A stretch of DNA of 63,969 nt, filler included, from Collodictyon triciliatum (GCA_043381765.1; 12 parts of 12 records of this genome joined end to end with filler, not necessarily neighbours in it), one strand, 5' to 3'. Counted from the first letter of the whole stretch, positions 37,936 to 57,777 are shown. Program-made: numbers and translations. The notes: generated from the sequence alone by a model not told the origin.

Positions 37936-39753
37936 CCCGACACGCTCAACCACAATTAAAGAAGGCTCCAAATCAATCGGTGATTGCAAATGCTTAGATT
38001 CGTATGTGTCATATGATGCTATTTGCACCTGTCCTCCAGGAAAATTTGAGGATGGCGTGGAGTGTGTTCCATGCAGACTTGGTTCATACAAACCAACAAA
38101 CGGCACAAATTTCTGCCTATCGTGTGGTGATAAATTTACGACAAAAAACAATGGCTCTATTTATTCGACCGATTGTGAATGCAAAACGGGATTTGAGTTA
38201 AGAAATTCTACTTGTGAATGCAAACCTGGCTGGTATGAAAAGCAAGGAAACTGCTACGAATGTCCTTTAGATACATACAGCGATGATTATGGACTAAAAT
38301 ATTGTAAAATGTGTCCTGAGGGATTTGAATGTGAAGGAACCAGTCAACCAACAGTTGCCCCTGGATATTGGCAGACTCAAACTAAAAATGGAGAATATGT
38401 CGCCTATAAATGCTTGAATGAAAACGCATGTAACGGAGGAAACAAAACTTGTGCTGATGGATACACTGGGCCATTATATAGTGTTTGTGACAATGGATAC
38501 GGAAAAACTGGATATTACTGCACTAAATGCCCACCGAAAGGAGTGAACATATTCTTGATTTTCCTGAGCTTTTTTATTCCACTAGCCTTCGTTTTCTTCA
38601 TGATAGAGCAATCAAGACAGACAAGAACAGGAAATATTCAAATCCTGAAATCTCCCTCCACGCATTTCCAAGTTTTGTCATATTTGGCGAACTTTGATGT
38701 AAAATGGAGCTCAATCATAATTTCAGCTATGAAAATCCCAGCCCTGTTTTCATTTTCTCTTTCAATAGACAGCTACCCGATGGAATGTCAACTAGAGCTA
38801 TCGATTTTCGAAAGAATATTGCTTACGATGTTAAGTCCAGTAATATTGATAGTAATCATGTTAATTTTATTTTAATGAAAGAGTTGAGGAGACTTTACAA
38901 AAATGAGATTTCAAGAAGTAATTTTACACTTACACATATTCGGGAAGAAATCATGTACTCGATGTTGGTCATGCTATTTTTTGTCCATCCTTCAATCACA
39001 TCGAGCATCGCACAGATATTTCCATGTGAAAAACTCGGGGATATAAGATATTTGAAGGCTGATATGTCGATTTTATGTGGTGAAGAAACATACAAATTTT
39101 GGAGAAATGTTTCTTTTGTTTTCCTTTTTGCCTATAGTATCGGCGGACCGCTCTTAATTTTGGTCAGAATAATTCGCAAAAGAACAGCGTTGAGCAATCC
39201 TACTTCGAAAACTTACGCACTTTTCAGATTTTTGATTGATGGATATACTGAAAAGTGTCAATACTGGGAGGTCGTCTTGATGATGCAAAAGTTGATCATT
39301 GTGATGATAAGCACGTTCTTTCCTGCTTCGCTTCAAATATACTCTGGTTTGTGGCTGCTGTTTCTGATGATTGCTTCGACCATTTATTTCAGGCCATTCA
39401 TATCCAATGTGCTGAAAAAGTCACAACTGCAATCCCTTATGATTCTCTATTTCACCTTGATGTTGAGCCTGCTTTTCAAATACAGCAGTATTAATCAAAA
39501 AACCGAAGTTGTGTTGGTGCTTTTGGTTGTTGTTCTGAATGGAGGAATATGTATCGTTTTCCTTTCAAAGGCTGGCCCTGTTATTATGAGATTGTTACTC
39601 TCACGATTTTTGTCCATGCTCAACTCTATTTGGAACTTTATTGTTTATAATTGGGTTTCAAATTTTATTGTCAGAAAAATAATGTGCATGAGACTTCGCA
39701 AAGATGTGGAGATGCATGATATTAGTCATCCGAAAGAAGTTCAAGAGTTTTGA
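35631..39753 (+). CDS. Intronless Cys-rich (GCC2/GCC3, ephrin-receptor-like repeat) surface protein with C-terminal multi-pass TM region; 5' incomplete; apparent 1-nt frameshift near 38865 (pseudogene or assembly error)
   Basis: Frame is open from the contig start to TAA at 38873-38875, with C.xCP.GT[FWY] repeats. The TM region continues in another frame to 39753 (LKADMSILC, FRFLIDGYTEKCQYWEVV, RPF). Confidence 0.82.
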
Positions 39754-42256: not shown

Positions 42257-45255
42257 TCAGAAGGGAACCATCTTAACAAGAATCCCGTATACTAGAATAC
42301 CTGGAGACTCTTCTGTGTAGTACTCAAGACTCGAGTTTGGGATATTTGGGTCTATTATAGAGTCACCTACACGATAGCAAAATAACGTATGTGATACAAC
42401 AATCTTCGAGAGAAGCCTTACGAAATTCGTACATGCGCTTTGGATATTGTGGTTTGTAGAAATAAAGGGAAAATGGAGACAGAGATGTAAAGAAAAAAGC
42501 ATAGAAACAAAAATGGAAATGGCAAGAAAAAAAAAGAGAAAGAAAAACAAATTTTAAAAACCATTCCCAAAGGTTTCTTGTCCTATTTTATAAGACCCAG
42601 GCCTCTGTCTTGTTTGGAAAACAAACTGAACTTTCAGCCTGATGGAAGGGTCTGTGGCACACTGCCATACGGTGGGCACAGCATATCTATCATCCGAGGA
42701 GTAAATAATGGAGGGACTGGTGAATATGTTGTTGGGATTAAATTCCTCCATCTCTCCGGTGTGTTTGTTCATCCGATTCCAGCTGTTTGCGATATGTCCT
42801 TCTTGAATCTCACATCGACCTCCTCCCAAGGGAACATCACCAGGTTTTAACAACCTTTTCCCTCCGGCAATAATCTTTTTGACACCTTGCGCATTTGTCC
42901 CGTGGAATGAATTGTGCCAGGTCTCAAAGACTTTGTTATGTTTTACAAACCCATGGTCTACAGACAACCCAAGTCTCGACCACCCGGCAGGCAAAATGTA
43001 TATTGCCGGAGGAGAACCTCTGGTGTCGACAATATTTGGATTTCCGGTAGTCTCAAAGCAGCTTATGCAAAAGCATCTGTCAAAATACGGGTCGAAATGT
43101 TCCTGCGGAAATGACCCCAACAACTCAGATAATATGTTTTTGGCTGTTAAGAACTCAGGACAACCTAAAATATGAACACTAGTCTTTACCATTGCAGTTG
43201 TTAACTCAAAAAAGAAAATGAGCGCAACCCAAAAAAAAAATATTATTATGAACTGCATTTCCTGATATTTCTTGAGTTTTGATGATACGAGGCGTTGGAA
43301 AGGAGGGGGATAAGTAAGAATAAGAATAGAGATTTCCAAAATCCAAATAAATTTAGTGGGAATATGATCGGATTCGTAAAGCATACCTATGTCGCGTGGT
43401 GCTTTGGTACGTCTAACATCTTCGGGGCTCAAAGCAGTTTTTAAGAATGTATCAGAGATATCAGTTATTGGATCAGGGATATCCTCCAATCGGAGATTCC
43501 GAAGCGACTCAGCAATTGTTTTGGTCGACTTTTCAGATGGCTTTGACTTACAAGACCAACAAGGTAACTGAGAAATTCCTACAGGAGCACTCTTGATATA
43601 GACCTTTCCGCTGTGCTCTATAACGAGAGTCTCTAGTTTGTTCAATCGTGTGACCAGTTGAGGCAGCCGAGAAATCTGTAGACGGTTGTATGTGAGTTTA
43701 GTAGCAATCTTGACACAGTCAAAGTTGTCACCCTTCACTTCTGAGATGTTATCATAACAGTGCCATCGAGAAAATAGAGGATTTCATTGTATGTCCATAT
43801 CATCACGATGCTTATTGGCCGTATATAGTCCAGCCCTGAAGACATCACATATAAATGCTCGGTTCAAGAATGGCTTGTTTTGAAGAAATAATAATGTAGA
43901 GATGTTTCATATTACATATACATACATACATACATACATACATACATACATACATACATACATACATACATACATACATACATACATACATACATACATA
44001 CATACATACATACATACATACATNNNNNNNNNNNNNNNNNNNNNNNNNNNNNNNNNNNNNNNNNNNNNNNNNNNNNNNNNNNNNNNNNNNNNNNNNNNNN
44101 NNNNNNNNNNNNNNNNNNNNNNNNNNNNNNNNNNNNNNNNNNNNNNNNNNNNNNNNNNNNNNNNNNNNNNNNNNNNNNNNNNNNNNNNNNNNNNNNNNNN
44201 NNNNNNNNNNNNNNNNNNNNNNNNNNNNNNNNNNNNNNNNNNNNNNNNNNNNNNNNNNNNNNNNNNNNNNNNNNNNNNNNNNNNNNNNNNNNNNNNNNNN
44301 NNNNNNNNNNNNNNNNNNNNNNNNNNNNNNNNNNNNNNNNNNNNNNNNNNNNNNNNNNNNNNNNNNNNNNNNNNNNNNNNNNNNNNNNNNNNNNNNNNNN
44401 NNNNNNNNNNNNNNNNNNNNNNNNNNNNNNNNNNNNNNNNNNNNNNNNNNNNNNNNNNNNNNNNNNNNNNNNNNNNNNNNNNNNNNNNNNNNNNNNNNNN
44501 NNNNNNNNNNNNNNNNNNNNNNNNNNNNNNNNNNNNNNNNNNNNNNNNNNNNNNNNNNNNNNNNNNNNNNNNNNNNNNNNNNNNNNNNNNNNACATACAT
44601 ACATACATACATACATACATACATACATACATACATACATACATACATACATACATACATACATACATACATACATACATACATACATACATACATACAT
44701 ACATACATTCATAGATTCATAGATTCATGAAACTGTTGGCACACTCACCGGGTTTGAAGAGACGTCTAGATGACACAGGTCGGCGAGCGAGGACAACTCT
44801 GCAGGCAGAGCACTCAAGCGATTGCACGAGAGGTCCAGGTGGCGGAGCCTCTTGAGGCAGCCGATGTCAGGCGAGAGATACTCGATCGTGTTCTCTGCCA
44901 GAAACAGATGCACCAGCGCCGTGAGGGCGTAGAGTTCAAACGGGAGCCACAAGATCTTGTTTCCGCTCAAGTTGAGGAGGTGAAGAGCCGAGAGCCTCGA
45001 GAGGACCTTGGGCAAGCTGGTGAGGCAGTTTTTGCTTGCGTCCAGAGCACCCAGACTCGTCAGCACAGAGAGCCCGGCGGGGAGGCTCATGATCAGGTTA
45101 TCGGAAAGCAGCAGTACCTTCAGATCGCCCAGCCGCGTGACCTCCTCAGGCACTTGGAAAAGCGACGCCCCCACCTGCACATACCTGGCGCTGCTCTCCT
45201 TGTCTCTCCCCCGCCTAGTGCGCCCGCCCGTCGGCCCTCTGCTTGACTCAGCCAT
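42257..45255 (-). CDS. LRR protein fused to a NEURL4-type ADP-ribosyltransferase domain. Exons 45255-44749, 43675-43387, 43164-42562, 42366-42257 (about 502 aa if no exon is hidden in the gap)
   Basis: Exon 1 encodes about five 23-aa LRRs ending DVSSNP|GTGAGT. Exon 2 encodes the last LRR and cap. Exons 3-4 read CFCISC...RGSPPAIYILPAGWSRLGL...WHNSFHGT...IFTSPSIIYS...QFVFQTRQRPGSY...IDPNIPNSSLEYYTEESPGILVYGILVKM, colinear with the NEURL4 C-terminal ART domain. Exon lengths sum to 1509 nt, in frame. Confidence 0.82.
43915..44708. repeat. (CATA)n microsatellite spanning a scaffold gap (N 44024-44592) inside intron 1 of the LRR-ART gene
   Basis: Same repeat on both sides of the gap. Confidence 0.9.
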
Positions 45256-49466: not shown

Positions 49467-51845
49467 CAATCCTCGAAGGCTCTCCACTACGCCGGATGTG
49501 ACGAAATCTGCTTTACACACAACCCTCGAAGGCTCTCCACTATTCCAGATTACGACGAAGTCTGCCTCACACAAGACACACAGAGGCTTTCCACTATGTC
49601 GGAATACGACGCAGTCTGCTTCACACACACAAATCCGCAGAGGCTCTCCACTATGCCGGAATACGACGCAGTCTGCTTCGCGCACGCAACCCTCGAAGGT
49701 TCTCCACTATGCCGGATTACGAAGATGTCTGCTTCACACGCACAACCCTCAAAGGCTCTCTACTGTGCCCGAATACGACGCTGTCTGCTTCACACACAAC
49801 CCTCGAAGGCTCTCCACTATTCCAGATTACGACGAAGTCTGCCTCACACAAGACCCGCAAAGGCTCTCCACTATGCCAGGATGTGACGATGTCTGCTTGA
49901 CACAAGACCCTCGAAGGCCCTCCACTATGCCGGATTACGACGCAGTCTGCTTCGCGCACGCAACCCTCGAAGGCTCTCCACTATGCTGGAATACAACGAA
50001 ATCTGCTTCACACACACAAATCCGCAGAGGCTCTCCACTATGTCGGATGTGACGCAGTCTGCTTCACACACAACCCTCGAAGGCTCTCCACTATGCCGGA
50101 ATGTGACGAAATCTGATTTACACACGACCCTCGAAGGCTCTCCACTATGTCGGATGTGACGCAGTCTGCTTCACGCCACAACCCTCGAAGGCTCCACTAT
50201 GCTGGAATACGACGCAGTCTGCTTCACACACACAAATACTGCTAAGGCTCTCTACTGTGCCCGAATACGACGAAGTCTGCTTCACACAAGACCCTCGAAG
50301 GCTCTCCATTATGCCGGATTACGACGAAATCTGCTTCACACACAACCCTCGAAGGCTCTCCACTATGCTGGAATACGACGCAGTCTGCCTCGCACAAGAC
50401 ACACAACCCTCGAAGGCTCTCCACTATGTCGGATGTGACGAAATCTGCTTCACACAAGACCCTCGAAGGCTCTCCATTATGGCGGATTACGACGAAATCT
50501 GCTTCACACACAACAACCCCCGAAGACTCTCCATTACGCCGTGATTACGACGCAGTCTGCTTCACACAAGACCCTCGAAGGCTCTCCATTATGCCGGATT
50601 ACGACGAAATCTGCTTCACACACAACCCTCGAAGGCTCTCCACTATGTCGGAATACGACGCAGTCTGCTTCACACACGCACAAATACTGCTAAGGCTCTC
50701 CACTATGCCGGATGAGACACAGTCTGCTTCACACATGCAACCCTCGAAGACTCTCCATTATGCCGAGATACGACGCAGTCTGCTTCACACACAACAACCC
50801 CCGAAGACTCTCCATTATGCCAGGAATACGACACAGTCTGCTTCACACACAACAACCCCCGAAGACTCTCCATTACGCCAGAATACGACGCAGTCTGCTT
50901 CACACACGCAAATACTGCTAAGGCTCTCCACTATGCCGAACGTCGACGAAGTCTGCTTCACACATGCAACCCTCGAAGGCTCTCCACTATGTCGGATGTG
51001 ACGAAATCTGCTTCACACAAGACCCGCAAAGGCTCTCCATTACGCCGGAATACGACACAGTCTGCTTCACACACAACAACCCCCGAAGACTCTCCATTAC
51101 GCCAGAATACGACGCAGTCTGCTTCACACACAACAACCCCCGAAGACTCTCCACTATGCCGGAATACGACGCAGTCTGCTTCACACACGCAATCCTGAAA
51201 GGCTCTCCACTATGCCGGAATACGACGCAGTCTGCTCCACACACACAATCCTCGAAGGCTCTCCACCATGCCCGAATACGACGAAGTCTGCCTCGCACAC
51301 ACAACCCTCCAAGGCCCTCCACTATGCCGGGATGTGACGCAGTCTGTTTCACACACAACCCTCGAAGGCTCTCCACTATGCCCGAATACGACGCAGTCTG
51401 CTTCACACACACAAGACATACAGAGGCTCTCCACTATGCCGGAATACGACGCAGTCTGCTTCTCACACACAACCCTCAAAGGCTCTCCACTATGCCGGAA
51501 TACGACGATGTCTGCTTCACAAGACACACAACCCTCGAAGGCTCTGCACTATGCCGGGATGCGACGAAATCTGCTTCACTCAAGACCCGCAAAGGCTGTG
51601 CGTTTGCCGGAATACGACGAAGTCTGCTTCACACACGCAACCCTGAAAGGCTCTCCACTATGCCGGAATACGACGATGTCTGCTTCACAAGGCACACAGA
51701 CACACAGAGGCTCTCCACTATGCCGAACGTCGACGAAGTCTGCTTCACACACAAGACCCGCAAAGGCTCTGCACTATGCCGGACGTCGACGAAGTCTGCT
51801 TCACACACAAGACCCTCCAAGGCTCTCCACTATGCCGGAATACGA
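49467..51845. repeat. Variant-unit minisatellite, about 42 copies of a 53-61-bp unit (consensus AGGCTCTCCACTATGCCGGAATACGACGCAGTCTGCTTCACACACAACCCTCGA)
   Basis: Counted GGCTCTCCACTA-like heads from 49478 to 51821; the array runs off the contig start. Confidence 0.95.
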
Positions 51846-52615
51846 AAACCGTAAGCCTTAAGCAATCAGATATTCTATTTTGCTCTTCGTATTTTGTTTT
51901 GCACTTGCATACACCTAGTCGATGTTTTTGCTATAATTCATATAGAAGGTTTATTCATGCATAAAGCACAAAAATTGAATTTCCCTTGTGAAAATAGTGC
52001 TATGTGTGCAGTTATGTGAAATTCGAAGCCCAATCCGCTGTTTATTGAGCAACAAAGCCGAATTGCGGACACAAAGGGTCTCCACTATGCCGAATACGAA
52101 AGCCGTAAGTCTTAAGCAATCAGATATTCTATTTCCCATCTCTCACTTCGAGCATTTTGTCTTTTTACTCCACACACTTAGTGGATGTTTTTTTTGTTAT
52201 AATTCATATAGAAGGTTTATTCGTGCATAGAGCACAAAAATTGAATTTCCCTTGTGAAAATAGCATTAGGTGTCAGGCTAGGGGAACATTCGAAGCCCAA
52301 TTCCCTGTTTATTGAGCAACAAAGTCGAATCGCGGACAATTCGCAAAGGCTCTCCACTATGCCGAATACGAAAGTCGTAAGTCTTAAGCAATCTGATATT
52401 TTATTTTGCTCTTTACTTCACTTTGAGCATTTTGTTTTTTTACTTGCATACTTAGTCGATGTTTTTTTTTGTTACAATACATATAGAAGGTTTATTCATG
52501 CATAGAGCACAAATAATAAATCTCTCTTGTGAAAATAGTGCATTCTGTGTCCGACTATGGAACATTCGAAGCCCAATACCTTGTTTATTGAGCAACAAAG
52601 TCGAATCGCGGACAC
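51820..52615. repeat. Three tandem copies of a roughly 256-271-bp unit whose head is homologous to the 56-bp unit
   Basis: CTCCACTATGCCG(G)AATACGAAA..CGTAAG.CTTAAGCAATC.GATATT...ATATAGAAGGTTTATTC...TTCGAAGCCCAAT...TGTTTATTGAGCAACAAAG.CGAAT.GCGGACA begins at about 51821, 52077 and 52348. Confidence 0.92.
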
Positions 52616-53382
52616 GAGACTCAGCATATTCCTGTCCACGTGCAGACGTGAAGGACTTCAGGTGAGTATCCCATTTACACACAAACATTTTTATCATTAA
52701 GAGAATCTCTTATTTTCTCCATTATCATTACAACAATTCGAAATACTTAAGCATTTTTTCTGCTTTTCAATAACCAAAGAATCCATAATAAAATCTCAAC
52801 AACCCATTTTCCAATGTGCATTCTCCAGTTTGTGATTGCAGAATTTCGGCCACTCTCCAACCGCAGCGACGCCGGACTTAGCACAAAGAGGCGCATCCGT
52901 GCAGGTGATTCAGGAAACCCAGGAACATGCAGCAACTCCTCCGCACCAACGCGACTCATGTGGCCACCCCCAGTATTCCCAACCATATGGCAATTCCCAG
53001 GTCTTTGGTGACGCCCGGTGACGCACGCGACAAGCACCCGGCTATTCCCAAGACTTTCGATGCAAGAGGTCAACCTTGGCTGTGGCCAACCCCGAACCGG
53101 TGAATTTCCAAGGAAGCACAAGCACACAAGTTCTGCACAAGTCGTCTTCTCGGAAAAATTCGCCGGCCTTTGCGGGATATTTAATGTCGTCTTGTCGAAA
53201 TCCTTGCCCCTCTTTTCTTATTCACAAAGTACTTTATGATCTCCGTGTGCACAACCCCACCATCCTGACTCGAGTGATTCTGTCCTGTGTGATTGTCAAG
53301 TCCGGTCATAAAACAAATAAATGATGTGTATTGTATTGACACCCAGCCAGTCTACCCATATATACAGTCGGAATCTGTCCAG

Positions 53383-54240
53383 ATGTCCGATCACCTCACA
53401 CCTGCCCAAGTGGATGCGCTTTTGGAAGAAGTCCGGATTCTCTCTTACGATCCAATTGCTGATATTGCCAGTCTGAAAAGATCCACATATCTGGATCTCA
53501 GTGAAAAGAATCTGTCATCTGTGCCGCCTGGTGTCTTTTTGTTGACTGGTCTTAAAGAATTGTATCTTAATGGCAATCAGTTGTCATCACTACCTGCACA
53601 AATATCGTGTTTGACTGGTCTCATAGAATTGTATCTTGGTGAAAATAAGCTGTCATCACTACCTGCACAAATATCGTGTTTGACTGGTCTCAGTGTACTT
53701 TATGTTTATGACAATAAGCTCTCATCTCTTCCTGCACAAATATCGTGTTTGACCGGTCTCACATATCTTAATGTTTGTGGCAATAAGTTGTCATCACTAC
53801 CTGCACAAATATCGTGTTTGACTGGTCTCACATATCTTAATGTTTGTTACAATCAGCTGTCATCACTACCTGCACAAATATCATGTTTGACTGGTCTCAC
53901 AGAACTTGATATTTATGTAAATCAGTTGTCATCGCTACCTCCACAAATATCGTGTTTGACTGGTCTCACATATCTTTATGTATTTGACAATCCGGTATGT
54001 TTTTATTCATATATTATTTTATATTTATGTTTAAAAGATAATGACTGACAACGATACACACAGATGGAGGAGCTTCCAGCACAAATCACAGCGCTCACAA
54101 ATCTGAAAAAACTCTGGATAAACTACGGATACACACAAACCATAAAGAGAGCCCCGCGTGGCATCTCAAATCTCCCCTGCTGGAATAACACAGCATACTC
54201 AGACAATAAACGCATCCGCGCTCTGCAGCTCTACGACCCC
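53383..54240 (+). CDS. Intracellular LRR protein with tandem 69-bp repeats. Exons 53383-53994 and 54064-54240; 3' incomplete
   Basis: LTGLxxLxLxxNxLSSLPAQISC repeats (about 7). DNP|GTATGT...CAG|MEELPAQITALTNLKKLWINYGYTQTIKRAPRGISNLPCW...LQLYDP|GTAAGC. Confidence 0.9.
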
Positions 54241-54416
54241 GTAAGCACACATCCACCCCCAACCCCCACATACACAACACAGGACACAACTAACATAACC
54301 CTAGGTCGATACCGCANNNNNNNNNNNNNNNNNNNNNNNNNNNNNNNNNNNNNNNNNNNNTTAATTAATTAANNNNNNNNNNNNNNNNNNNNNNNNNNNN
54401 NNNNNNNNNNNNNNNN

Positions 54417-57400
54417 GATACCATCTATTCACACCTTCGTCATAAACGGTGCATCCAAAAACACCAAACACCTCTCTTGCGACCGAATAGTATATAAAAA
54501 ACAGAAGATTCAATGCGATGAAAACGGCCTGCAATAAAATATTTTTTTTAGAATTACTAAAGATGAAGCTGAAACAATATGGAGATTTACAATTGAATAT
54601 ATTTTTCCATCCTTACTTTGTTCTGCTTGTGTCCATGTCCAAAATAGTACGTGGCTGAGCCAACAACGATAAAGATTGGTATTCTTGCAAAACTGAACAT
54701 CAGAGAAGCAAACACATCGTCTACTCCAAGCACACAGGAAAGGTTAGGAAATTGGATTGAACCAATAGACGATGAAACTTCAATAAAGCTGTTTGCATCT
54801 TCTGAAAGAACGATTCCATTAGACACAATCGACAGTGTTTGCATGTGGAACATTATTATCCTGAGTTTCGCTACAAAAAAATATTCTGATTAATGAAGAA
54901 AGAATCAAGTGAAATAATTTAGTGACATTTACCTGATTTCGATGTCTCTGTGAAATACAGGTAGCAAATGAACATAAAGAATCCAATCGAACCAATAATC
55001 AGGGTTGAATAAATCGTTCCTTTATCGCATTTCACACACGACCTCCCTTGATTTCCGTATCCATTCTGACATTTTGAGCAGGCATTGCCTTCATATCCCT
55101 CTTGACAAAGGTCTGTGATTTCGACCGTCGTATTTGAATTCGAAATTTTCTCTGGAATCGACACATCACATGACTCACGACGTGGACATGGCAGTATTGA
55201 ATTCACAGAGGTAATGCTTGGTGAAGCATGACAGAATTTCAAGGACGTTCCATCAAGGCAATCACATCCTCTTGCGCATTGAACGCAGTTATTTCCAAAG
55301 CCGAAATATCCAGGCAAGCATTTACAAAATTCAAAATCATAATATTCTGGATTCAAGTCAACCTCCAACTCAATTAGACCAGATTTCGAAATAATGGAAG
55401 GACAAATGTAGCGTTTTGATTCGTCTTGGAGATTGAAAGATGTTGTGAAATTCATGAAATCAGGAAGAAAATTAGCTGTTCCGTGATTCATCGATGTTTT
55501 ATTCAATCCCAAATACTCGAGCCTTGAAAACCCGATGTATGATTCAGGAATGCTCCCAACAATCGGATTTCCAGTGATGTCAAGGGAAGTCCATCTCAAT
55601 AGAGTTGTAAGTTCATCAAGCTTAGTGATGTTGTTGTTTTTAAGACTTAATGTTTTTATGTTAAGGACATAGTCAAAAATCAACCAATTCAGTTCCCCAT
55701 AGAGTTGGTTTTCATCAAGCAAAAGGTTTTCATAAAAATAATCAAATTTGCCTGCTTCTGGAACTATGAAAACACTAGCGTCTCCTGAAAAAGAATTATT
55801 TCTCAGATCAATGGTCACTAGATTCGGCAGATTCCAGAATAAATCAGGCATGTTTCCAGAAAATTTATTGTGAGATAAGACGAGTGATTTAAGTTCTAAT
55901 AATCCCTGAAAATAGGTTGGGACTGTGCCGTTCATTTTGTTCCAAGACAAGTCGATGTATTTAATTGAAGGTAATATCCAGTTATCAGGTATAGAGCCAC
56001 TGATTTGGTTTTCACTCACATCCAGTCTTGTCAGGTTATTCAGATTGAACATCGGTAATGAGCCTGACAACTTATTTCGGAATAGCAATATTTCCTTGAC
56101 TTCGTCGCAATATTTGAAATCTGGAACCTCTCCCTCCAACTGATTATCATAAACAGAAAAAATCTCCATTTTACGCATGTATGAGAATTTTGGAATTGTG
56201 CCTAAAATTACTCATTAATATGAAAGGAAATGTAAAATCAAAAGAAATAGAAAGGGAAAATGAGTAGAAATCACCATTTAATCTGTTTCTATCAAGGTAA
56301 ATTCTTTTAACATTTGTAATACCACTGAAGTTTGGAACGGCTCCTGTAATAAAAAGTTAGTTTTGCATCAATATTACATGAAATAACAATTAAACTTACC
56401 ATTCAATTGATTACCGGAAAGATAAATTTCTAAAACATTAGGAATTCCACTGAAGTTTGGAACCGTTCCTGTAATATAAAGTTAGTTTTGTACTTATATT
56501 TTATATATGAAATAATAATTAAAACTTACCATCCAATTGATTGCCGAAAAGAAATATCTCTAGAATATTTGGAATCCCCCTAAAATTTGGAACCATTCCT
56601 GTAATATAAAGTTAGTTTTTCTATGCCATCATATTTAAGTAAACGAAAAACATACCATGAACCTTGCAGCTATAAATTGCAAGAAACTGAACATTCGGCA
56701 ACACTGAGAAGTCAGGAAGAGTTCCTGAAATGGAAAAATCAATAGAATTCAGAAGAAATTATATTAAAAATTACTTTGTACCTGTAATTTTTTCACTTGA
56801 ACCAATCCACATTCTCTTCAGTGACTGTATTCCAGAAAAATCTGGTATTGTTCCTTCCAAAATATTCCCATCAATCTCAAGGTGTTCAATTTCCGGCATT
56901 CCTTGAAAGTCTGGAATCGTTCCTGTAATTTGATTCACAAAGAGATTCAGATACGTTATACTTGGGAGATTAATGTCTGGAGGATTTCCGTAAATGGAGT
57001 TGTAGCTCATGTCCAAGGAATCCAATAACTGAAACTTCTCAAAAATCGCAGAGGCAGCTTCAATGTCACCGTTAAGGTTGTTTCCTGACATACTGATTCT
57101 GAATATGGGACATGTATTGCTCTACAAATATAAAGGAAAATTATTAAAAGTGAAATCAAAAGAGATTACCATCATTTCAAGAAATACCTTATACTCTTCA
57201 TCCGAGCAGCTCTGATGACACGATATTCCATACCAATCACAAATCGGGATACTTTCATTCTTCCATTCAGTGTTCCGAAACCAATCATCGCCGCCAAGTG
57301 AATCGTAAAGTTGGACAAGCAGTTCGTATTGAGTCCCAGTATTTCCATCGGCCACACTTCGGTTTTCTTCGTTCTCTAACCCCCGTTCTCTGTTTCCACT

Positions 57401-57777
57401 TCGTTTTTGCGAATGAATATCTTTGTAGAAATCGACATTACTAGATGTTAATTTTCTTCCGTAATTCCATTCAGCACCATGTCCATTTTCTAGCGAGTAT
57501 TCTCCATCTTTGCAGCCATTCATCAACCCTGAAAAGTTATCCTCACTCTCTTTTAACAAAGGACATGTCTCATCGTAGTAGCTCAACAGAATTTGGAATG
57601 CATCTTCGACTTTCATGGAAAGTAACTCATCTCTTGAATACTGGCATCTGTTTTCCTTATTTGAGTCGAAAAGGTATTTTATAAAACATCATAAATCAAC
57701 ACATACCTTTGACGTGGGTGAATTGAGGATGCCGATGAAACAATGAAAACGATGGCAACAAACGCAACCAAAAGCAT
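54417..57777 (-). CDS. Signal peptide + plant-type LRR ectodomain + Cys-rich linker + multi-pass TM receptor, 3' incomplete. Exons 57777-57707, 57647-57188, 57121-56782, 56724-56656, 56598-56530, 56468-56400, 56343-56275, 56201-54933, 54870-54617, 54528-54417
   Basis: Signal peptide MLLVAFVAIVFIVSSASS; LRR N-cap LVQLYDSLGGDDW...ICDWYGISC; LxxLxLxxNxLxGxIP repeats; CQEGYEGNACSKCQNGYG; TM helices. All junctions are phase-consistent GT-AG. Confidence 0.88.

Follow-up and report, generated by a model that had tools for sequence, protein, structure and literature searches.

In plant NLR and receptor-like proteins, the solvent-exposed x residues of the LxxLxLxx motif in the leucine-rich repeats (LRRs) are under diversifying selection, and in their multigene families this selection is combined with gene conversion and unequal crossing-over. 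The variable lymphocyte receptors (VLRs) of lampreys and hagfish carry a hypervariable concave face, rich in aromatic residues, on a constant LRR scaffold; in the germline, the VLR genes are incomplete, and their somatic assembly draws on flanking cassettes. The known diversity-generating retroelements (DGRs) are those of prokaryotes and phages, where their targets have C-type-lectin or Ig folds. Among protists, the Ectocarpus LRR-ROCO genes show positive selection on the concave face and variable repeat number, according to passages of Zambounis et al. 2012 (PMC3341825). The same passages propose unit-level rearrangement as a source of receptor diversity and describe each LRR as its own 72-nt exon and ROC-COR as the effector. 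LRRs are paired with an ADP-ribosyltransferase (ART) domain in LRRC9, which sections of PMC7955679 describe as having an LRR-ART-LRR layout and a degenerate active site and report as absent from CRuMs.

Here, we analyzed an LRR gene of Collodictyon triciliatum (GCA_043381765.1), which belongs to a lineage of poorly studied protists near the base of Amorphea. Among the papers listed in a search of a limited literature library, none tied Diphylleia or Collodictyon to leucine-rich repeats. The array in this gene belongs to an already known type, the young LRR array with a variable binding face.

Structure and genomic setting of the LRR gene

The window, meaning the whole stretch of 63,969 nucleotides that was analyzed, is a chain of approximately 5-kb unplaced contigs joined by 11 linkers of the form N44-TTAATTAATTAA-N44, which carry stops in six frames. 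Because these contigs are unrelated, proximity across linkers is biologically meaningless, and nothing elsewhere in the window can be called nearby. The LRR gene lies on the contig at 49467-54316. The linkers and the features of this contig are as follows.

4830, 9714, 14597, 19479, 24360, 29235, 35575, 40602, 49411, 54361, and 59230 (within window 4786-59285): linkers
49467-51845: 54/56-bp satellite at the contig start, upstream of the LRR gene, approximately 42.6 copies, 78-79% matches
51819-52614: 275-bp repeat, 3 copies; together with the satellite, it immediately precedes the LRR gene
53383..53994, plus strand: exon 1 of the LRR gene, from the ORF and sequence, with the ATG at 53383 and a Pfam LRR_8 match (E 1.6e-34)
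53473..53541, plus strand: first, degenerate LRR (LKRSTYLDLSEKNLSSVPPGVFL), in the array register and outside the near-identical set
53542..53994, plus strand: array of seven 69-bp units in tandem, each coding for 23 residues (LTGLxxLxLxxNxLSSLPAQISC)
53995..54063, plus strand: 69-nt GT..AG intron, with a GTATGT start, a CAG end, and an in-frame TGA
54064..54240, plus strand: exon 2, encoding the remainder of LRR 9, a degenerate LRR 10, and a linker
54241..54316, plus strand: 5' part of the second intron (GTAAGC); the contig stops at 54316

The product of exon 1 begins with an N-terminal cap, which is non-hydrophobic, followed by a single degenerate LRR and the seven-unit array. Unit 7 contributes 39 bases (through codon 13) to exon 1, is interrupted by the 69-nt intron, and is completed by exon 2; excision of 53995..54063 brings back the 23-residue LRR register (..FDNP/MEELPAQITA LTNLKKLWIN.., where the slash marks the junction). 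The gene is truncated, as its unplaced 4.85-kb contig stops inside intron 2 and the 3' part is missing. The profile matches in Pfam were LRR_8 (E 1.6e-34), LRR_4 (4e-24), and LRR_1 (1.6e-13), and exon 2 matched no Pfam family. Both marks of the 23-residue LRR class were found, namely, a profile match and a regular period with one predicted strand per repeat. A single-sequence AlphaFold model of low confidence (pLDDT 63) has a strand every 23 residues at unit codons 6-9, and a position of the x residues on the concave beta-sheet fits this predicted strand placement.

Upstream of the gene, a GC-richer stretch at 52826-53151 was matched by a 437-nt contig of the RNA run X5 with 6 differences. This contig diverges from the window at 52826, beside a possible AG acceptor, and the stretch may be a 5' UTR exon or belong to another transcript.

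Three further contigs of the window were noted. At 9770-14552, minus strand, long intron-free ORFs encode fn3-like repeats, a Por_Secre_tail (T9SS sorting) domain, and an IgGFc_binding-like protein, and this contig looks like Bacteroidota-type bacterial DNA within the eukaryotic assembly. A tandem repeat at 35638-38875, plus strand, has a period of 279 bp with 8.2 copies and 85% matches; it codes for cysteine-rich Ephrin_rec_like modules, with 15 stretches matched, within an 826-residue ORF that runs on into hydrophobic segments, and it represents another repeat protein of recent expansion. The contig that comes next in the chain carries, at 54919-57616 on the minus strand, a receptor-like gene whose product combines LRRs of the plant type (24 residues) with a cysteine-rich region and a membrane helix; this gene is unrelated to the 23-residue LRR family.

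Constant scaffold and variable x positions

Tandem Repeats Finder reported a period of 69 with 6.5 copies and 84% matches at 53542-53991. The framework 30-mer CCTGCACAAATATCGTGTTTGACTGGTCTC occurred six times, three times exactly and three times with one mismatch, always inside the array, against 0 expected occurrences (100 shuffles). These counts confirmed the first-pass annotation, made from the sequence alone, which had described a framework nearly identical at the DNA level. The scaffold (LSSLPAQISCLTGL) was near-identical even at silent sites. Translation of the units reproduced the x residues listed there (KE-Y-NG, IE-Y-GE, SV-Y-YD, TY-N-CG, TY-N-CY, TE-D-YV, and TY-Y-FD), and the two codon columns it quoted (AAT, GGT, TAT, TGT, TGT, TAT, TTT and TAT/AAT/GAT) were also recovered. 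By similarity, the units fell into the groups 1-2 and 4-5-7.

Of the 69 columns of the unit, 25 were variable, comprising 13 of the 18 columns in the x codons (5, 6, 8, 10, 11, and 13) and 12 of the 51 in the framework (Fisher p = 4e-4). None of the 17 framework second positions varied. The earlier statement that changes largely spare position 3 was overstated, as three of the six third positions in the x codons vary; in the five core x codons, position 3 accounted for 4 of 20 parsimony steps (p = 0.15 vs one third). Tyr made up 10 of the 35 x residues, which were also rich in Asn, Asp, Cys, and Phe, all encoded by NNY codons.

Substitution rates among the units

Nei-Gojobori values were pooled over all unit pairs, with x5 denoting codons 5, 6, 8, 10, and 11. 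At x5, dN was 0.64 and dS 0.18, and overall dS was 0.25; in the convex-half scaffold, dN was 0.012 and dS 0.16. Since the units are mutually related, Fitch steps were counted on a UPGMA tree of the units. Of the steps in the x5 codons, 20 were non-synonymous and none synonymous; the framework had 3 non-synonymous and 13 synonymous steps, and codon 13 had 4 non-synonymous steps. The resulting x5 omega was approximately 1.9 per site (one-sided binomial p = 0.044 vs all synonymous steps), a comparison of repeats within one protein that is distinct from diversification between alleles or paralogues. The finding of 0 synonymous steps among 20 at x5 had p = 0.022. However, in the beta-half framework codons 4, 7, 9, 12, and 14, dS was 0.59, and against this local silent rate the excess of x5 dN vanishes.

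The non-synonymous excess at x5, from seven units and approximately 33 events with p of approximately 0.04, is suggestive, not strong. Diversifying selection with repeat homogenization, as first put forward in the earlier annotation, is still the best-supported reading, but its statistics are weak (dN/dS of approximately 1.9) and its signature is generic.

The same contrast in unrelated LRR arrays

A protein-guided search across metagenome contigs gave 42 LRR loci (best 49% identity), all of them unrelated; none of the 42 is a family member, and they serve as comparators only. A 23-base framework word had no exact matches in metagenome contigs, and protein searches at near and shorter lengths returned best identities of 44-58% and no family fragments. 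A fixed 23-residue pattern with at least four in-register units identified 22 arrays in 19 of the 42 loci and none in the other 23. At their source, generic 23-residue arrays are annotated as internalin A, SHOC2-like, or LRR protein.

pN at x5 exceeded overall pS in 9 of the 22 comparator arrays and in 9 of the 10 of those with pS < 0.46. The target array (x5 pN 0.45 vs pS 0.21) had the third-highest ratio. Comparator examples from DNA at 21%, 44%, 62%, and 63% GC likewise had near-identical scaffold DNA and changed x codons. The target array was distinctive only by the invariance of its scaffold protein, with a convex-half pN of 0.01 vs 0.12-0.47 in the comparators. Because the same signature is present in 9 of 10 young unrelated arrays, it is generic and not peculiar to the target locus. 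The contrast between scaffold and x positions is thus the rule for young 23-residue arrays, and no special mutation machinery is needed.

A paralogue with a predicted C-terminal ART domain

A paralogue of the LRR gene lies on another contig of the window, with the following features.

44725-45255, minus strand: paralogue LRR exon on the other contig (tblastn 40% identity, E 9e-23; Pfam LRR_8)
43387..43738, minus strand: paralogue linker exon, homologous to target exon 2 (tblastn 35% over 54 residues, E 9e-8)
42557..43162, minus strand: predicted main ART exon of the paralogue, 202 residues, Neurl4-like, PARP-fold
42257..42364, minus strand: predicted last ART exon, 35 residues, with the conserved LE(Y/W)YT glutamate and the stop codon

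The six LRR units of the paralogue are old, mutually diverged, and saturated (pS 0.67). An assembly gap lies between its LRR exon and linker exon, and an intron follows the linker exon. The linker motif IKxAPxGISxLPCW of exon 2 is common to the target gene and this paralogue.

The C-terminal ORF of the paralogue matched no Pfam family, and a profile of the ART domain had no matches at E ≤ 1 among PDB chain sequences. An exhaustive search for relatives of the domain returned 609 clusters, 48 of them at E ≤ 1e-30. In the 21 homologues scanned, no Pfam family covered the ART domain, and 6 of the 21 had no Pfam match at all. The domains preceding it in homologues were Macro plus WWE (a PARP14-like layout), Neuralized repeats (as in homologue P0203), LRR plus ZU5, LRR_6 plus Roc, numerous LRRs with a membrane region, WD40, Kelch, ubiquitin plus WWE, kinase, and 'GT4-conflict'.

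The structure model is of the complete homologue P0126, which is 49% identical to the paralogue (alignment of 32, pLDDT 93.7). In a Foldseek search with this model, all 15 of the matches listed (E ≤ 0.001) were PARP catalytic or ART domains; the best listed match was PARP4 (E 1.3e-4), and TM-scores were 0.3-0.45. VIA-align of the model gave Z 10.3 with the ART domain of PARP1 (rmsd 3.9 Å over 168 residues) and Z 10.2 with PARP16. As modeled for P0126, the C-terminal domain family of the paralogue has the ADP-ribosyltransferase fold. In the alignment of 32 sequences, H89, Y156, and Y162 do not vary, and at least 90% of the sequences retain E219; the counterparts in the window paralogue are FHGT, SPSIIY, and LEYYT. 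By analogy, these columns of the H-Y-E type are putative catalytic positions.

Passages of PMC3417536 name a 'Neurl4-like ART' family, and a table in the part of PMC7955679 cited here gives the NEURL4 motifs as HGS .. ELE. By motif and description, the paralogue domain fits the family and the motifs given in these parts of the two sources. Because exon 2 of the target gene is homologous to the linker of the paralogue, we infer from paralogy that the missing 3' part of the target gene probably also encodes a Neurl4-like PARP-fold ART domain. A search of a limited literature library found no description of an LRR plus Neurl4-like ART family.

Family variants in public sequencing runs

The runs containing parts of the window were mostly freshwater metagenomes. 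None reached half in its word share of 52700-54316, and the best values were 0.22-0.23. Runs X1, X2, X3, and X5 were compared at a likeness of at least 88%, in the form of assembled contigs that may stem from related strains or species. X1 contained 139 and X3 213 short contigs that were 88-100% alike; in the classes ≥99%, 95-99%, 90-95%, and <90%, there were 31, 39, 53, and 16 contigs in X1 and 45, 65, 83, and 20 in X3. At a single position (53368), the number of distinct contigs reached 15 in X1 and 14 in X3. Cover was scant or absent in X1 and X3 for the bins at 53672-53779, and absent in X2 across 53456-53779.

Nine joints led from different points of the array straight to 54063/54064 with the intron absent; X3 contained six of them and X1 and X5 two apiece, X1 and X3 having one in common. 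X5 is on record as a metatranscriptome, which places its two exon-2 joints in an RNA library. The shorter side of the joint anchors was 20-45 bases. By hand translation, eight of the nine carry other variable segments, then N-P or N-L, and then exon 2; the joint segments read SS-Y-FD, EV-F-FN, IG-Y-SD, SV-A-CA, SV-Y-YV, TY-N-ES, TY-E-HA, and TE-D-YV. SV-Y-YD (target unit 3) and TE-D-YV (target unit 6) appeared as the terminal unit at exon-2 joints. Two "goes back" joints contained the further internal units TR-D-QS and TC-E-GH. Among the joints listed, none skips exactly 53995-54063 from the last unit of the target itself. A contig of X2, which is DNA by guess, retains the intron with 32 differences.

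Assembled contigs do not distinguish between germline paralogues and somatic variants. As we read them, a large number of related genes may share the scaffold and exon 2 and differ in x positions and unit number. The contigs and joints indicate a multi-copy family in which at least some members appear to be spliced and transcribed.

At 53384, a related contig of run X1 has a different coding start that replaces the target N-terminus right after the start region. It reads MGNTLS by hand translation, which is N-myristoylation-like, and some family members may be membrane-tethered.

Origin of the array and its variable face

We consider it probable that this is an ordinary germline protist gene with a young, homogenized LRR array and selection on the concave face, within a multi-copy expressed LRR-ART family. 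In such a history, near-identical 69-bp units would arise by tandem duplication, and we infer that unequal crossing-over or gene conversion would keep them alike; such homogenization would account for a scaffold that is almost unchanged at silent sites as well. In each unit, the five or six x residues, predicted to lie on the concave beta-sheet, would be repeatedly replaced by point substitutions, and selection would retain these replacements. The outcome would be a constant horseshoe with a unit-specific surface, presumed to bind ligands, that differs among family members. In the working model, a likely arrangement is an LRR sensor coupled to an ART effector. The LRR proteins of the family look cytoplasmic. 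Passages of PMC3417536 treat 'passive' diversification as usual for lineage-expanded LRR receptors, which matches this proposed history.

A neutral history would need less: a young array whose scaffold is under strong purifying selection and whose x positions are unconstrained (omega of approximately 1), with no positive selection. The contrast between scaffold and x positions would then follow from the LRR consensus alone. Variable x positions are established for all LRR proteins, the x5 dN of 0.64 equals the beta-half framework dS of 0.59, and the excess over overall dS reaches only borderline significance (p = 0.044), all of which would sit well with neutrality. On the other hand, x5 dN is 2.6 times overall dS, there are 20 non-synonymous steps at x5 and no synonymous ones (p = 0.022), the strong overrepresentation of Tyr (10 of the 35 x residues) hints at a binding surface shaped by selection, and the same excess in 9 of 10 young comparator arrays is hard to obtain from neutrality alone; we regard this history as unlikely, if well short of negligible. 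An assembly artefact, in which the number and order of units reflect a chimeric or collapsed path through paralogues and the exact array is present in no gene, appears more doubtful still. The contig is small and unplaced, the family is multi-copy, and near-identical stretches reach 42 bases, longer than typical short-read k-mers, such that unit order and number in a short-read contig could be misassembled; poor coverage of 53672-53779 in X1 and X3 leaves units 3-4 without independent confirmation. However, every unit keeps both the reading frame and the 23-residue register intact, the similarity groups (1-2 and 4-5-7) are sensible, and even a chimeric path would be assembled from genuine units of the family, leaving the contrast of framework with x positions unaffected.

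The first-pass annotation had also offered targeted mutagenesis or cassette exchange, which we found unsupported. Such programmed diversification would be somatic or developmental cassette exchange or hypermutation, as in lamprey VLRs, or DGR-type mutagenic retrohoming. In one version, the scaffold would serve as recombination homology, with units exchanged between family members or mutated within a clone to give a VLR-analogous LRR-ART repertoire; we consider this version highly improbable. The segments of units 3 and 6 that are terminal and joined to exon 2 in other contigs, a tendency toward higher silent divergence in the unit's variable half, and the many variable-segment variants within single runs would suit programmed diversification, but a multigene family would be just as likely to show many variants. 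The feature that defines VLR-type assembly, an incomplete germline gene, is not seen here: the ORF is continuous from the ATG at 53383, with one normal spliceosomal intron (69 nt, GT..AG). Shuffling of the Ectocarpus type, with one LRR per exon, does not apply within this array, given that the seven units lie in a single exon and the sole repeat intron cuts the last unit. With up to 3 mismatches allowed across the whole window, the framework 30-mer occurred only inside the array, and thus the window holds no second or template copy. In the ORF listing for the contig at 49467-54316, no adjacent reverse transcriptase was found, and the only other long ORFs listed lie in the 54/56-bp satellite. 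The earlier remark that the window has neither template nor reverse transcriptase holds for the second framework copy; its reverse transcriptase part carries no weight in a window of unrelated contigs. Changes are not confined to positions 1 and 2, and the variable columns include third positions, also in x codons, and all four bases, unlike variation from an adenine template. Among two-fold codons (NAY, TGY, TTY, and CAY), 21 of 23 end in T in exon 1 outside x5 and 16 of 19 within x5, and the preference reverses from 21 T to 2 C in exon 1 to 4 T to 9 C in exon 2. The NNT column thus reflects amino-acid make-up and local codon preference rather than adenine-directed mutagenesis, and its DGR reading was rejected. 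Taken with the same pattern in unrelated arrays and with the restriction of DGRs to prokaryotes and phages and to other target folds, these observations make programmed diversification very hard to credit.

An ordinary, homogenized germline array is thus our preferred reading, and the contrast of scaffold with binding face is textbook LRR evolution, for which a new mechanism is not required. A family that couples a Tyr-rich variable LRR surface to a Neurl4-like ART would be a candidate recognition-plus-effector (immune-like) system. If true, it would add one case bearing on how common it is among eukaryotes to generate receptor repertoires via passive diversification of LRR families.

Comparison with known systems

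The likeness to DGRs is superficial and limited to one NNT column; the target gene is eukaryotic and spliced, encodes an LRR fold, and shows neither a template repeat nor, in the ORF listing, a reverse transcriptase on its contig. As in VLRs, a constant scaffold is combined with a hypervariable, aromatic-rich concave face, but unlike VLRs, the target gene is complete through the array and gives no sign of somatic change. Plant NLRs differ in their LRR subclass and in the NB-ARC domain, which the target does not have; furthermore, the plant evidence comes from alleles in populations, whereas the target evidence comes from repeats of one gene and short contigs. The Ectocarpus LRR-ROCO and LRR-kinase genes are similar to the target in being a protist family of cytoplasmic LRR proteins. 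Unlike them, the target has seven 69-nt units in one exon, which makes exon shuffling impossible within its array, and its effector would be an ART domain. LRRC9 pairs LRRs with an ART domain in a combination proposed as sensor plus effector, as for the target family; in contrast to LRRC9, the order in the paralogue is LRR and then the predicted C-terminal ART, and the putative triad columns are retained. The generic 23-residue arrays of bacteria and protists (LxxLxLxxNxLxxLPxxIxxLxxL) have the same repeat length and consensus as the target at no more than 49-58% identity, and compared with them, the target gene is spliced and eukaryotic and belongs to a family whose members probably end in an ART domain.
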